IMG/VR virus record: IMGVR_UViG_3300017747_003845
Location: 1-26,432 of that record
Reading direction: 5' to 3' (one strand)
Origin: a virus
Taxonomy: Duplodnaviria; Caudoviricetes
DNA: 26,432 nt
Position numbers and translations under genes: made by a program. Below the pieces are notes generated by a model. It saw only the letters and a list, made by a program, of their open reading frames with translations, ran no database searches and had not been told where the DNA came from. Shown here one piece after another: positions 1-10,682 of the stretch. Position 1 is the first letter of the stretch; the number at the start of each line of letters is the position of its first letter.

Positions 1-809
1 AACCATTCGCGGCATTGTTCGACTCGCTGATAAATATTGTTTATTAACGCTTCATCGCGGTCAACTTTGAACCGAACTATTCGCTCTCGGATAGGAATTT
101 CATCAAAGGTCATGTTGTTTTCAAGACGTGCGATTACTTTCTTGTAGTCAGCGTTCTCTTCGGTGGCCGGATTCATGGTACGGAAGATACGATTCTTTTC
201 TCCGTTGATGATTTCTTGTGGCATATTTACAAGAACGTAGCATACTTCGGCAGTTTTAGCTCCAGTAAGAGCCATATACCCTTGCACTTGATAGAAATAC
301 AATAGGTTTAATGGGGAACCTATGTTACTCAATAGGCTTGCACCATCCCATGAGGATTTTATGTCAATGATTTTGTCGATGTTACCATCTTGGGAACTTA
401 CGATAATGTCTGGTTCGCCAGTTAAGTACTCGTTTTGGAATCGTTGCTCGTTTTTTGAGTAGAACACATCGTCTATTCGGCTCAAAAGCATGATGGATTC
501 GTCTTCAACTGAGCGTCCTTTGATGGTATATCGGCTTCTTTCACTACCACCTACTGATTCTTTACCGTACTTGTAGTACATGTAAACCTCTTTGAGGTAA
601 GTTTTGCAGGTATCTGATAATGATGGAGTTGCATCCTTCTTCTCAAGTAAAACTTGCAGTGTTTCTTCTTGCTTTTCGGTACGTTTTTCTATATTTTGCA
701 AACGCTCAAGCTCGGAAGCTTGTTTTTCAGTAAGAACAGACCCACGGCCATTGGCCATAATCTTTCCGATGCAACTGCAACGGATGAAAGTATTATTCCA
801 GTTTGACAT
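1..809 (-). CDS. YqaJ/lambda-exonuclease-like PD-(D/E)XK recombination exonuclease (3' end runs off the window)
   Basis: Absent from the ORF track because it is truncated. Manual translation from ATG at 809 gives MSNWNNTFIRCSCIGKIM...KGRSVEDE...LTGEPDII...IIDIKSSWD...YQVQGYM, the typical YqaJ-family motifs. It lies directly downstream of an annealing-protein gene. Confidence 0.85.
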   Translation of the reverse strand, partial: MSNWNNTFIRCSCIGKIMANGRGSVLTEKQASELERLQNIEKRTEKQEETLQVLLEKKDATPSLSDTCKTYLKEVYMYYKYGKESVGGSERSRYTIKGRSVEDESIMLLSRIDDVFYSKNEQRFQNEYLTGEPDIIVSSQDGNIDKIIDIKSSWDGASLLSNIGSPLNLLYFYQVQGYMALTGAKTAEVCYVLVNMPQEIINGEKNRIFRTMNPATEENADYKKVIARLENNMTFDEIPIRERIVRFKVDRDEALINNIYQRVEQCREW

Positions 810-839: not shown

Positions 840-1532
840 TTACCCGATAGATTTAGCTGTTTTTGCTAATTCTCTTAGCCTATTTTCGTATAAATCTCGT
901 ATTTCATTAGAAGTTTTCTTATCGTAAACTACTAATCTGTACGATTTTAGCTCATCGTAACTTTTGCATGATATAAGTTGCTTGGTAAACTGAAATGTAA
1001 ACTCCTCTGGGGTGAGTTTTACTTCTGTTGGCTCAAGAACTTCTGCTTCTTCGACAGTTTTATTGAGATACTTGCCAAATAAGCCGCCGAGTTGCTTCAA
1101 AGCGTTCTTTACAGCCATTGAAGAAGCTTTTGGAGTGGCTAATTCCAGTAACGTGATGTCATTGCAGGGAACTGTTGCGATTCCATACAGGAATTTAGAT
1201 GATTCATCAGCATTATGCATACGGCAAAAATATTCGACGCTTACAGTGGCTGCAAATCGCCCGTTTTTATCTTGGTCTATACGGTAATCTCTTATCTTAA
1301 TCTGTCCTTTATGGCCAAATATGCGCGTTACACAGGCTTCCATGATATCTAGGGGAAGTGCCTTGAATGTTTCACCGGGTCTGGCCTTGGAGGGAAGTTC
1401 TATAATCCAACTAGAAGGTGGCTCGGAAGCTTCAATAACGTCGTAAATTTCATCGAATTGCTCTTCCTTAACTAGTTTGTCAATCTTGGAGAATACCTTG
1501 TCTCCAAGCTTCAATTGCTCTTGAATGCTCAT
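840..1532 (-). CDS. Rad52/Sak-like single-strand annealing protein (phage recombinase)
   Basis: C-terminal motif PKASSMAVKNALKQLGGLFGKYLN resembles the Rad52/22 'KxAxSxAxKxAxxxxGxxxGxxL' helix. It is paired with an exonuclease in a Red-like arrangement. Confidence 0.7.
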   Translation of the reverse strand: MSIQEQLKLGDKVFSKIDKLVKEEQFDEIYDVIEASEPPSSWIIELPSKARPGETFKALPLDIMEACVTRIFGHKGQIKIRDYRIDQDKNGRFAATVSVEYFCRMHNADESSKFLYGIATVPCNDITLLELATPKASSMAVKNALKQLGGLFGKYLNKTVEEAEVLEPTEVKLTPEEFTFQFTKQLISCKSYDELKSYRLVVYDKKTSNEIRDLYENRLRELAKTAKSIG

Positions 1533-1554
1533 GGTTAAATTGTTTTAGGTATTG

Positions 1555-1587
1555 CAAATGTAGGGAAGTAGACACTCAACTTCCAAA
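1555..1587 (-). promoter_or_regulatory. Bacteroidota sigma-A-type promoter for the recombination operon
   Basis: Minus strand TTTG-N21-TACATTTG matches TTTG-N19-21-TAnnTTTG. The spacer contains the inverted repeat GGAAGT-N9-ACTTCC. Confidence 0.75.
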
Positions 1588-1599
1588 TATTTTTTTACC

Positions 1600-1633
1600 A
1601 AAAAAAGAGCCCCCTGTAGAAACAGGCGGCCCC
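1600..1633 (-). terminator. Intrinsic terminator with CUGU-UUCU-ACAG top
   Basis: Minus strand GGGCCGCCTGT-TTCT-ACAGGGGGCTC followed by T7. Confidence 0.8.
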
Positions 1634-1670
1634 ATTACCTAAAACATTAAACAATGAAAACAACTGCATA
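1600..1670 (-). ncRNA. Candidate small antisense RNA (about 70 nt) against translation-initiation regions
   Basis: A -7-like box TACCTTTA (1672-1679) precedes a U-rich body UUGUUUUCAUUGUUUAAUGUUUUAGGUA, then a terminator hairpin and U7. The body has 16-nt perfect complementarity to 2199-2214. Confidence 0.5.
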
Positions 1671-1811
1671 GTAAAGGTACTGAATTTTTAGGGTCTGGCG
1701 CAGTGTTGATGGAGACCCCGTAAAAAATCGGGCGGTCAAATTTTCGGGGTTTAACAAAACCTTAACTGGGTGGCCTATACTTTTCTGATTCCGAATTCGT
1801 TGCATCACATT

Positions 1812-2195: not shown

Positions 2196-2210
2196 CTTAA
2201 ACATTAAACA

Positions 2211-2423
2211 ATGACAAAATTTAAAGAGCTACCTTCTGATGTCGATTTGAGTATTTGGGTTACCCAAAAGGCTTTAGCAGATGAGCTGAACAGAACTGTA
2301 CATGTAGTACACAATTGGGTTCAAAGAGGTAAAATTGAATGGGGCTTCCTTCCCGGCAGCACACTCAAGTTAGTAAACAAAAATACCGTATCAGTTAACT
2401 TTAGCCACCACAAAAACAAATAA
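2211..2423 (+). CDS. Small helix-turn-helix DNA-binding protein (excisionase/Cro-like)
   Basis: WVTQKALADELNRTVHVVHNWVQRGKI is a classic HTH/winged-HTH pattern. It has its own promoter and an A-rich start region. Confidence 0.75.
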   Translation: MTKFKELPSDVDLSIWVTQKALADELNRTVHVVHNWVQRGKIEWGFLPGSTLKLVNKNTVSVNFSHHKNK

Positions 2424-7929: not shown

Positions 7930-8661
7930 TTACTTTTCATTTTGAATCGAAATTTGGGCTGTTTCCGTGCGTCTGGTGAGATTCTGGACCTCAGTCTCGA
8001 CCTCGCAAAGCGGCCTGACCAACTCCGGAGCCATTTCGATGTGCGATGCCCGAATTTGCTTTTTTGCCAAAAGTTCGAATTCTTCGTCGGTTAGCGGCTG
8101 ACAAGTCTCGTCGTCGAAAACAACAACTTTCAACTTAGGCAAAAAATAAACTCCAACTTTTTTGGGTTTTTCTACAACCGGGTAAAACTTCTTTTCGTTT
8201 TCTTTTTTATTTTTTTTTTCTTTTTCTTTTCCAAAATCCTTAGTTAGTACATTTCCTTTACTTTCCTTTCCTTTCCTTTCCTTTATAGCATTGCGGTCGC
8301 TCTCCGGACGCAATGCGTTCGCATCCGACCATCTGTAAGACGCTGATTCTCTTGCTTTTAAAGATTTGCTATTTCTCTCATCTAATCGTCTTTGTACCGA
8401 CTTGGAACCGAAAAAATTTTCCGAAATTTCAAACAAATCAAAGTCTCGCACTACGCTCGCTACAATGTCGCATTGCGTTCGCAAATCGAACGCAATGCCT
8501 TCGTAATCCGTTCGCAATGCGTTCGCATTATTGTATAAATCTTCGACAATTGACCAATAAATTCCGTACCCAACCATGCCGTGGCGACGCACCAACATCT
8601 TGATTTTTTCGTCATTTCTGGCGTTATAATCGTGGCTAAAATAAAAGGTTTGTTTTGCCAT
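7930..8661 (-). CDS. DUF4373/Lin1244-type putative replication initiator
   Basis: N-terminus MAKQTFYFSHDYNARNDEKIKML...GYGIYWSIVEDLY matches the Bacteroidota DUF4373 pattern, with a KERKGKESKG linker. It sits upstream of the primase-helicase. The start was reassigned from 8706 to the ATG at 8661. Confidence 0.8.
   Translation of the reverse strand: MAKQTFYFSHDYNARNDEKIKMLVRRHGMVGYGIYWSIVEDLYNNANALRTDYEGIAFDLRTQCDIVASVVRDFDLFEISENFFGSKSVQRRLDERNSKSLKARESASYRWSDANALRPESDRNAIKERKGKESKGNVLTKDFGKEKEKKNKKENEKKFYPVVEKPKKVGVYFLPKLKVVVFDDETCQPLTDEEFELLAKKQIRASHIEMAPELVRPLCEVETEVQNLTRRTETAQISIQNEK
8288..8535. repeat. Iteron-like 11-bp tandem arrays inside the initiator gene (putative replication origin)
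   Basis: Consensus GCA(A/T)TGCGTTC, with 4 units at 8288-8331 and 8 units at 8448-8535. A perfect 12-bp inverted repeat spans 8470-8498, and an A/T tract lies at about 8190-8280. Confidence 0.65.
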
Positions 8662-8805
8662 AAAAAAGGGTGGCTTGCCTGTGCCTTTGCTAAAGATATA
8701 ATACACCCAAAATGGGGCAAAAATCTAGCACAGGACAAGCCGTATTTTTAAATAAATTGAATGAAAAATGGGGCATATTATATGTCTTTAGCGGCATCAA
8801 AATTA
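8662..8805 (-). ncRNA. Structured 5' leader / candidate antisense-type regulatory RNA of the replication operon
   Basis: -7 box TAATTTTG (8798-8805). Stem 8728-8741/8672-8684. The 5' segment 8771-8792 is complementary to loop segment 8689-8708. Direct repeat at 8709-8719/8765-8775. U6 immediately precedes the ATG. Confidence 0.6.
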
Positions 8806-9077: not shown

Positions 9078-9506
9078 TTAATGTTGGTAAGATATTTTAG
9101 ATAGTTTTTTATCAGAGTTCCAATAATATATTCTAACTCCGTAAACGACATCTTTTAATTTAGTTATTTCGATAATAATTTCTTCTCCATTTGTATCAAT
9201 ACAATCGTATTCTACAAAATCAAAATATGCGTCGGTAGATTTGTCGTATTCTTTCTCAGTTTCTTGAGACCGTATTTTATATTTTTTATTCTCAATTGTA
9301 ATTTCTTTATCTGATAAAAAAAGTAATGACCTTTGGGATGATGAATTTTCAGATATAAAATCTTCTTTAGCTACGTCGTATACAAATTCTAACTTTTTTT
9401 CGAACAAGGCTACAATTCCCTTGTAGCTAAAAATCTCGTTTTGGGATTGGCCGTTGATGTTAAGGCTTAATAGGATGATAAGAAAAGAAATAATTGTTTT
9501 TTTCAT
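9078..9506 (-). CDS. Secreted/periplasmic protein with Sec signal peptide
   Basis: MKKTIISFLIILLSLNING|Q is a basic N-region plus hydrophobic core with cleavage before Gln, as is typical in Bacteroidota. Start reassigned to the ATG at 9506, which has an A-rich leader and an upstream TATCTTTA box. Confidence 0.7.
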   Translation of the reverse strand: MKKTIISFLIILLSLNINGQSQNEIFSYKGIVALFEKKLEFVYDVAKEDFISENSSSQRSLLFLSDKEITIENKKYKIRSQETEKEYDKSTDAYFDFVEYDCIDTNGEEIIIEITKLKDVVYGVRIYYWNSDKKLSKISYQH

Positions 9507-9573: not shown

Positions 9574-10074
9574 TCAAACATTAAAGTCTTTAAATGGGTC
9601 GTTATCGTCTAATTTTTTTTGAAAAAATTCGGGAATTCGTGATGTCTCTTTAATGTCTGGCGAAATACTGATAAACCTGTCCGTTGCTTCTTTAAATATG
9701 GGCATTTTTCTAGCAGCCTCCCAATTGCTATCGTATGTGCCGTGACAATTGCACCACTTACCTAAAATCATATAATTTAAAGGGTGTGTGGCTACTGATG
9801 GGAATATTGACTTGGGGATTACGTGGGCTATGCAAGCATGCCAGTCTTGTTTATTATAGTGCGCAAGCGATTCCCCGCAATTCCAACATTGCTTGTCTTC
9901 CCGGGCCATAATACCCTCATACCATTTTTGAAGTTCAGAGGGAAGTCCTGACTCCTTAAATTCTAGTTCTTGGGCAATTTTCTTTGCCGACTTTTTAGGG
10001 ATGCGATAAGCCTTCTTTGGCTTTTCTTGTTTCCCGTTAAGTTTCTGGTTAAAGCGTTCTTCTAGGTAACTCAT
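9574..10074 (-). CDS. HNH/His-Me finger nuclease-like protein (NinG/Ref-like)
   Basis: CWNC...AHVIPKS...HPLN...CNCH motif arrangement with a basic N-terminus. Confidence 0.7.
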   Translation of the reverse strand: MSYLEERFNQKLNGKQEKPKKAYRIPKKSAKKIAQELEFKESGLPSELQKWYEGIMAREDKQCWNCGESLAHYNKQDWHACIAHVIPKSIFPSVATHPLNYMILGKWCNCHGTYDSNWEAARKMPIFKEATDRFISISPDIKETSRIPEFFQKKLDDNDPFKDFNV

Positions 10075-10472: not shown

Positions 10473-10484
10473 AATACTGCAACA

Positions 10485-10682
10485 ATGAAAATCAGAATTG
10501 AAAAACTGCAAAAAGAACTGACTCGGGGAAGTGCTAAAGAACAGGTTGTAGCTCTTAAAGAGCTTAAAGAATTTGTCATCAAATCTTTGTCACAAGAACA
10601 GGCTGAAATCCAAAGTTCTGTTTCAGGTATTCAAGATTTGATTAATGAGATTAGCGGAGGTGTTCCCCAATCTAACGGTTAA
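10485..10682 (+). CDS. Small coiled-coil hypothetical protein
   Basis: 65-aa ORF with good start context (CAACAATG) and heptad-like pattern. Confidence 0.6.
   Translation: MKIRIEKLQKELTRGSAKEQVVALKELKEFVIKSLSQEQAEIQSSVSGIQDLINEISGGVPQSNG

Follow-up and report, generated by a model that had tools for sequence, protein, structure and literature searches.

A non-coding cassette of 80 bases on the minus strand (1600–1679) of an uncultured-phage fragment is proposed here, with a probability of roughly 0.6, to be the gene of a trans-acting small RNA directed, by base pairing, at the start regions of early mRNAs of the same phage; the family that it represents is probably a new one among phage small RNAs. 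The fragment, called the window below (the whole stretch of DNA analysed, 26,432 bases of one virus record, about 41% complete), has no match among GenBank phages by BLAST, no tRNA in a tRNA search and no Rfam match at gathering score anywhere along its length.

In the proposed mechanism, a –7-type box at 1672–1679 would start a minus-strand RNA of about 67 nt ending in the U-tract at 1606–1600. Its U-rich 5′ part, predicted to be unstructured, would pair with the A-rich start regions of the phage's early mRNAs, which lack Shine-Dalgarno (SD) sequences; the chief partner would be the start region of the neighbouring Sak/Rad52-like gene, and pairing would likely block translation of the targets. 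The RNA would be made from the cassette itself, the expected outcome of pairing is repression rather than activation or a change in mRNA stability, and the role may be to time or limit the expression of early and recombination genes.

The cassette and its surroundings

The cassette stands in a long non-coding stretch upstream of the Sak-like gene, with the following features in and around it:

3–809, minus strand: exonuclease gene
840–1532, minus strand: Sak/Rad52-like gene (230 aa, weak Rad52/22 match), adjoining the exonuclease gene
1533–2210: non-coding stretch of 678 nt between the Sak-like gene and the 70-aa ORF
1587–1555, minus strand: predicted promoter of the Sak-like gene (TTTG at 1587–1584, 21 nt, TACATTTG at 1562–1555), a motif match only
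1606–1600, minus strand: U-tract of the terminator, seven T
1607–1633, minus strand: terminator hairpin, also in the list of minus-strand terminator-like sites
1634–1667, minus strand: U-rich body (seed), GCAGUUGUUUUCAUUGUUUAAUGUUUUAGGUAAU
1654–1671, plus strand: MKTTA mini-ORF
1672–1679, minus strand: –7-type promoter box TACCTTTA (TAnnTTTA; the plus strand reads taaaggta)
2188–2195: promoter-like TAnnTTTG site upstream of the ORF at 2211
2211–2423, plus strand: 70-aa ORF, the "HTH" gene of the first-pass annotation

Beyond the 70-aa ORF, which has no family hit, a long leftward replication operon (primase-helicase, initiator) is followed by a rightward operon. The Sak-like product matches Rad52_Rad22 with E 0.0095; a weak match to this family, under Pfam's cut-off, is found in four of six Sak family members (best E 7.7e-4), and a profile of the Sak relatives gave 0 hits against solved structures. 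The leaders are A-rich and no SD-like motif is present in the 42 start regions listed. From these leaders and the TAnnTTTG promoter-like sites alone, a Bacteroidota host is likely, because the sites are of Bacteroidota type and the leaders are A-rich without an SD-like motif.

As the first-pass annotation had described, the minus strand carries a –7-type box, a U-rich body and an intrinsic terminator (1600–1633) in succession. The box may act as the promoter of the small-RNA gene; it is a motif match only, one of 47 TAnnTTTA sites in the window, and has no –33 TTTG at the usual spacing. Transcription of the predicted RNA would start at about 1664–1668. The minus-strand RNA of 71 nt folds at –22.7 kcal/mol (z = –4.0), with none of 200 shuffles as good. 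A hairpin predicted within the seed of the window RNA disappears in the relative L079, which has one extra A, and was for this reason left out of the model. When three genomes of 26, 70 and 59 kb (156 kb in total) were scanned for the same architecture (box, T-rich stretch, strong hairpin, T5), this unit alone was returned in G000, G001 and G002.

Coding readings of the region fare poorly, in line with the first-pass annotation, which had seen no credible ORF in the cassette. No conserved protein ORF is present in 1533–2210 on either strand in the five lineages compared. The MKTTA mini-ORF, which that annotation had entered as a caveat and which does stand on the plus strand, was rejected as a leader peptide, having no ATG in the L005/L090 type; within the window type, the only changes seen in it are synonymous GCA/GCG and stop-to-Leu. 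A structured RNA on the plus strand was likewise rejected, its consensus fold being without compensatory support and two long-range pairs breaking in two of six sequences. Changes outside the terminator in the minus-strand consensus fold are one-sided only.

Contigs from three RNA runs and a fourth run of doubtful kind cover 1400–1634 and 2098–2349, not 1652–2083, and give neither strand nor RNA ends. Their ends at 1623 and 1634 were discarded as candidate RNA ends, as contigs of DNA runs break at 1631, 1638 and 1667 too; such breaks are expected of 31-mer unitigs at a block shared by strains. An attP/attB or prophage core as the cause of the block's invariance is unsupported, because two block patterns gave 0 hits in 185,579 species genomes, among which the host is maybe not represented.

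Several other elements lie in the same region or further along the window. Just to the right of the cassette, a GC-rich hairpin at 1714–1737 (GACCCCG...CGGGCGGTC) is present in all lineages, with both arms changed in some of them (e.g., GACCCCCGC/GCGGGGGTC in L004 and ACACCCGCGCG/CGCGCGGGTGT in L008) and no T-run after it on either strand. The G-rich non-coding region at 1680–2111 is kept in all window-type lineages and has a diverged form in distant ones; it contains GGGGTGGGGC three times at 2029–2064, three copies (1898, 1965, 2081) of a 31-nt unit containing GGGAAGTGG, and a CTCTCTCTATATATATG stretch with a TATGTTTG box at 2082, while the distant lineages have GCGGGAAGTCGTG repeats in place of the window's repeats. 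This region might be an origin, a packaging site, a set of protein-binding iterons or G-quadruplex DNA. A near-perfect palindrome of 26 bp (GCATGAA...TTCATGC, 2114–2139), just upstream of the promoter of the ORF at 2211, could be an operator; L004 has a different palindrome (TAAACAAAATTGTTTA) at this place. Iteron-like repeats with 11-nt spacing (GCATTGCGTTCGCA...) at 8288–8528, inside the replication-initiator gene (7930–8706), are likely a replication origin.

Complementarity to start regions within the window

The first-pass annotation had proposed that the RNA is antisense to a set of the phage's own start regions, and its sequence statements and coordinates all hold on re-check. The predicted targets are:

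1551–1541, minus strand: beginning of the leader of the Sak-like mRNA, TACCTAAAACA, positions –19 to –9 relative to the AUG
2199–2214, plus strand: leader and start of the ORF at 2211, 16 nt
821–811, minus strand: exonuclease leader AAAACATTAAA, 11 nt
9511–9500, minus strand: start region AAACAATGAAAA of the ORF ending at 9078 (start at 9506), 12 nt
10481–10491, plus strand: start region AACAATGAAAA of the ORF at 10485, 11 nt

The longest of these matches is an exact repeat, AAACATTAAACAATGA being present both at 1642–1657 in the cassette body and at 2199–2214, with an extension to 20 of 22 nt and a predicted duplex energy of –23.0 kcal/mol. By itself this repeat is weak evidence: at least one repeated 16-mer is found in 20.5% of 200 dinucleotide shuffles of the window. 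The Sak leader word TACCTAAAACA recurs on the plus strand at 1636–1646, again in the body, and its duplex with the RNA is put at –18.5 to –18.9 kcal/mol; duplexes with the exonuclease, 9506 and 10485 start regions, whose complementarity of 11–12 nt is borne out, lie at –16 to –22 kcal/mol. The 12-nt match of the 9506 start region is also found at the matching gene in G001 and G002; for the ORF at 10485, the corresponding gene of G001 has a match of 10 nt. The start at 9506 is read as promoter-proximal because a TATCTTTAC box (9533–9525, minus strand) lies 18 nt upstream of its ATG; TATCTTTAC is the box of relatives' cassettes and one of only two TAnCTTTAC sites in the window.

Short matches come cheap between a U-rich seed and A-rich leaders, a caveat made in the first-pass annotation that stands, and the count was set against two kinds of control. 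Perfect complements of at least 11 nt to the 35-nt body occur at five of the 42 start regions in the window, or at four of 42 if the start at 9581 is kept instead of 9506, which was taken on a hint in the first-pass annotation. Dinucleotide shuffles of the body reach 11 nt or more at a mean of 0.2 start regions (0 of 300 as extreme), and mock seeds, each the antisense of a real start region, at a mean of 0.38 (0 of 42 as extreme). The complementarity to several start regions thus goes beyond chance.

The unit in related phages and its partner

Six window-type sequences (the window, L041, L002, L004, L012 and L038) were gathered by protein, DNA-pattern and one metagenome scan. Their Sak proteins are 55–99% identical and the flanks of the cassette diverge, while the block 1603–1667 is identical in all six, bar an extra base in L012/L038 and a G>A change in L002, and is probably under purifying selection. 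The box varies at its free positions only (TACCTTTA or TATCTTTA). In four further DNA runs, the rows listed hold only 1629 G>A within 1578–1667, and many differences from 1668 on and in 1560–1577; this change, seen in L002 and in run X9, leaves the minus-strand RNA with a G-U pair, and the plus-strand version of the hairpin with a C-A mismatch. Among the 11 loci listed from the DNA-pattern scan, five are cassettes, and the other six were rejected as the antisense of ordinary gene starts without a terminator. Loci L023–L036, which share the hairpin word, were rejected as well, being ordinary terminators after protein genes.

These close relatives bear on which target is the conserved one. The first-pass annotation had named the HTH leader first among the targets of the RNA and its co-variation with the RNA as something to be looked for; three of the six window-type lineages (L002, L012, L038) lack the ORF at 2211 next to the cassette, which itself is unchanged, and in L004 the leader of this ORF has lost one base, which cuts the match to 13 nt, and the RNA did not follow. 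The 16-nt match is a property of some lineages rather than a general one. An A to T change in the Sak leader similarly leaves a perfect match of 8 nt in L004 and of 9 nt in L012 with the RNA unchanged, so that small target changes within the window type are not compensated by the RNA. Across more distant phages, the leader of the Sak/Rad52-like gene, and not that of the HTH gene, is the conserved partner.

A profile of six Sak proteins retrieved 25 loci in 19 viral contigs, which with the window make 20 records, and the unit (–7-type box, U-rich stretch, GC-rich hairpin, T-run) is found beside Sak in 18 of them; in the remaining two, the L083 locus is cut inside the terminator and the L091 contig ends at Sak. 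Fourteen lineages were compared, L074, L077, L094 and L096 being left out as their seeds repeat included types. Thirteen of the 14 have a box at the corresponding position, as TAnnTTTA in eight and as the canonical Bacteroidota TAnnTTTG in five (L080, L081, L082, L084, L087); L085 has TATTTTAG, not clearly a box. A hairpin followed by a T-run (T4–8) is present in all 14, with GC-rich stems of different sequence, folding energies of –15.6 to –24.1 kcal/mol and, in the consensus, four of seven pairs changed on both sides; the terminator is preserved by structure and not by sequence. Six of the viral contigs carry the same locus twice, in opposite orientation and mirrored about the middle of the contig (L002/L003, L018/L019, L008/L009, L085/L086, L088/L089, L091/L092); these are probably fold-back (palindromic) assemblies that arose as amplification or assembly artefacts.

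The unit runs in the same direction as Sak in seven of the 14 lineages and in the opposite direction in the other seven, and its distance from Sak ranges from about 90 nt (window) through about 640 nt (L080) to about 1380 nt (L082). As its three parts stay together despite inversion and movement, it behaves as a transcription unit of its own. The same facts weigh against a quite improbable cis reading, by which there is no diffusible RNA and a read-through transcript carries the U-rich stretch together with the Sak leader and folds back to hide the Sak start, as a 5′-UTR anti-leader or attenuator. The layout of the window type would allow this, with the unit directly upstream of Sak and in the same direction, and the Sak 5′ UTR of distant lineages does contain a hairpin that resembles a terminator and is followed by U8. 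Where the unit is on the opposite strand, however, it cannot be part of the Sak transcript; in L080 and L082 there are ORFs between it and Sak; and in the window a separate predicted Sak promoter lies between the terminator and Sak.

The 5′-UTR hairpin just mentioned is an observation in its own right. It is seen in L093, L098, L090, L087 and L088, with up to eight U, and directly precedes the Sak leader, hence the predicted target of the RNA; in L093 and L098 it is preceded in turn by a canonical TATATTTG box. The element looks like an attenuator or a second short transcript.

In support of a small RNA acting in trans, seed and Sak leader change together across the phage lineages. Seeds vary widely (e.g., GCGUUUUCAUUGUUUGUUUGUUU, GCGUUUUUCUUGUUAUUGUUUGUGU, GUUUAGUUUAGUUUAGUUUGAUU), and the longest uninterrupted complement between a seed and the Sak start region of the same phage (tested from –45 to +15) measures 8–17 nt across the 14 lineages, 13 of which rank within the best 5% when set against 500 shuffles of their seed; L097 fails to beat such shuffles (0.18). 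When the seeds are reduced to seven types, own pairs reach means of 12.7 nt and –20.7 kcal/mol and foreign pairs a mean of 7.07 nt. None of the 1854 derangements of the seven types attains either observed mean, and none of 265 with six types, in a test that assumes independence of the types despite the relatedness of the phages. Cross-matching is seen between L080 and L084, whose targets are related: each seed matches the other's target besides its own. Common ancestry of the lineages, or leader sequence duplicated locally more than once, could give the look of co-variation. L090 and L087 have one common seed and different Sak leaders, and different parts of the seed are paired (14 and 13 nt); selection for pairing explains this pattern better than the copying of a segment or a protein site at a fixed position would.

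A protein site is at the centre of a further reading, as improbable as the cis one, in which the A-rich words are DNA operators for one phage protein, for instance the product of the ORF at 2211, the hairpin is merely an insulating terminator and no regulatory RNA exists. The words do lie at or just past the predicted transcription starts of Sak and HTH, and the 11-nt copies at 1541–1551 and 1636–1646 flank the Sak promoter as an inverted repeat. Against operators, the matched Sak segment takes different positions from –22 to +14 around the AUG, and the part of the seed that it matches differs from one lineage to the next as well; the three parts of the unit change place and direction as one; the invariant block of the window type is 65 nt long, beyond a single site; and half of the window-type lineages lack the HTH gene next to the cassette. 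The orientation of the repeats points the same way: at the DNA level they are inverted if RNA and target are codirectional and direct if they are opposite, and this fits in every case, because pairing between two RNAs requires exactly such an orientation.

That the unit is a relic, a decayed and functionless copy of a leader beside an ordinary terminator, is already disfavoured and scarcely credible: its plus strand does resemble a start region with a five-codon ORF and the 16-mer repeat alone is not rare, but the 65-nt block is invariant between diverging flanks, the unit is present in 18 of 20 records, the terminator is maintained through different sequences and the seed changes along with the Sak leader.

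Known start-region RNAs and the meaning of the family

Bacteroidota have no Hfq and mostly no SD sequences, and their post-transcriptional control is only now being worked out. The small RNA gene and its antisense relation to early start regions, as proposed in the first-pass annotation, gain support from the relatives; the novelty that it claimed for the mechanism does not survive, as the FopS/GibS RNAs of Bacteroides and the c4 RNA of phages P1 and P7 already act in this way according to the available text of two papers (PMC11697453; PMC12197685). The kind is thus known, namely small RNAs that mask start regions by base pairing, among them phage RNAs with targets on mRNAs of the same phage; new would be such a family in Bacteroidota phages, with natural compensatory types of seed and leader. 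A literature search over titles and abstracts found no small RNA described for a Bacteroidota phage, and neither "Bacteroid" nor "Flavobacter" occurs in a 2025 review of phage small RNAs (PMC12197685).

As far as the available text goes, FopS/GibS RNAs bind to start codons of mRNAs without an SD sequence, whose translation they block, and for FopS-10, pairing next to the start codon of susC mRNA blocks translation in vitro (PMC11697453). Those of Bacteroides thetaiotaomicron (RF04319) resemble the candidate, in the same text, in their size of 65–70 nt, in an unstructured U-rich 5′ seed with an anti-AUG (UUUUCAU), in a Bacteroidota –7-type promoter combined with an intrinsic terminator, and in having several targets per RNA, often the first gene of an operon (PMC11697453). 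They differ in being chromosomal, in 14 copies, and in targeting host PUL genes (PMC11697453, available text), whereas the candidate is phage-borne, single-copy in G000, G001 and G002, and predicted to target the phage's own early genes.

This likeness raises the very improbable alternative that the RNA is real and its main targets are host mRNAs, such as those of SusC-type outer-membrane transporters, which it would shut off as a mimic of the host's FopS-like RNAs, the phage matches being incidental. In its favour, FopS was the best-scoring named family in an Rfam scan of 1500–2260, aligned end to end on the predicted strand, and FopS RNAs pair at start codons. The score, however, is at noise level, and membership of the family was rejected: the covariance model gives 18 bits against a gathering cut-off of 56 (E 4.5 over 761 nt, 0.96 over 161 nt), and the 21 identities in the first 30 positions of the alignment are not significant in a U-rich context. 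The FopS search gave no match in G000 and scores of 14–15 bits in G001 and G002 at sites unrelated to the cassette, and the model matched eight of 14 control genomes, passing the cut-off in only one. The seeds, moreover, differ widely between lineages and track the phage's own Sak leader.

Among phage RNAs, the closest parallels are found in temperate and satellite phages. The c4 antisense RNA is released by processing of an operon transcript that also carries its target; the candidate unit, unlike c4, has its own box and terminator and occurs on either strand. The original paper on c4 is that of Citron and Schuster in 1990. The CI RNA of the satellite phage P4 is complementary to the leaders of its own early operon, which it controls by premature transcription termination, is cut from the leader itself, and co-varies with its targets. 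The candidate shares with it the small size, the complementarity to own early leaders and the co-variation among relatives, and differs in its predicted action at translation start sites. Lambda OOP and P22 sar are short, terminator-bearing phage RNAs that exert control over early or regulatory genes of their phage by pairing; they overlap their target on the opposite strand with full complementarity, whereas the candidate is encoded apart and pairs over 8–17 nt.

The resemblance to c4 goes further in function. In P1 and P7, c4 blocks the ribosome site of the phage's own ant mRNA, and, like the candidate, it is phage-encoded and uses short complementary stretches on the ribosome-binding region of its own mRNA (PMC12197685, available text). 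RNA and target also differ together between related phages in both cases, which for c4 leads to heteroimmunity, according to the same portion of that review (PMC12197685). c4 is a component of the immunity system of temperate phages, where it controls an antirepressor, and the conserved partner of the candidate is a Rad52-like gene. An immunity RNA of the c4 type was set aside on this ground and on the content of G001, the complete relative of 70.6 kb, in which neither an integrase nor a repressor was hit among the 44 ORFs of at least 110 aa scanned; a classical role in lysogenic immunity is not indicated, because of that result. G001 also contains an ORF of 3177 aa (L049:5035-14568) without a PHROG hit.

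A wider role is conceivable, if unlikely: the cassette may found a small-RNA family of uncultured freshwater phages, with likely Bacteroidota hosts, that serves RNA-based heteroimmunity beyond the timing of their own early genes. The seed/leader pairs would then have split into at least seven specificity types, and a phage already established in a cell would shut down the recombinase and other early genes of a related newcomer on condition that the latter had the same leader type, and not otherwise. Such heteroimmunity, if true, would drive the observed diversification of seed and leader, and would be like that of c4 in P1/P7, yet in phages without a detected integrase.

If the small RNA is real, these phages would, like their hosts, use the occlusion of start regions on SD-less mRNAs. 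The family would supply natural compensatory pairs of seed and leader that are directly testable against each other, and it would provide a conserved non-coding marker for annotating the uncultured freshwater phages of this group.
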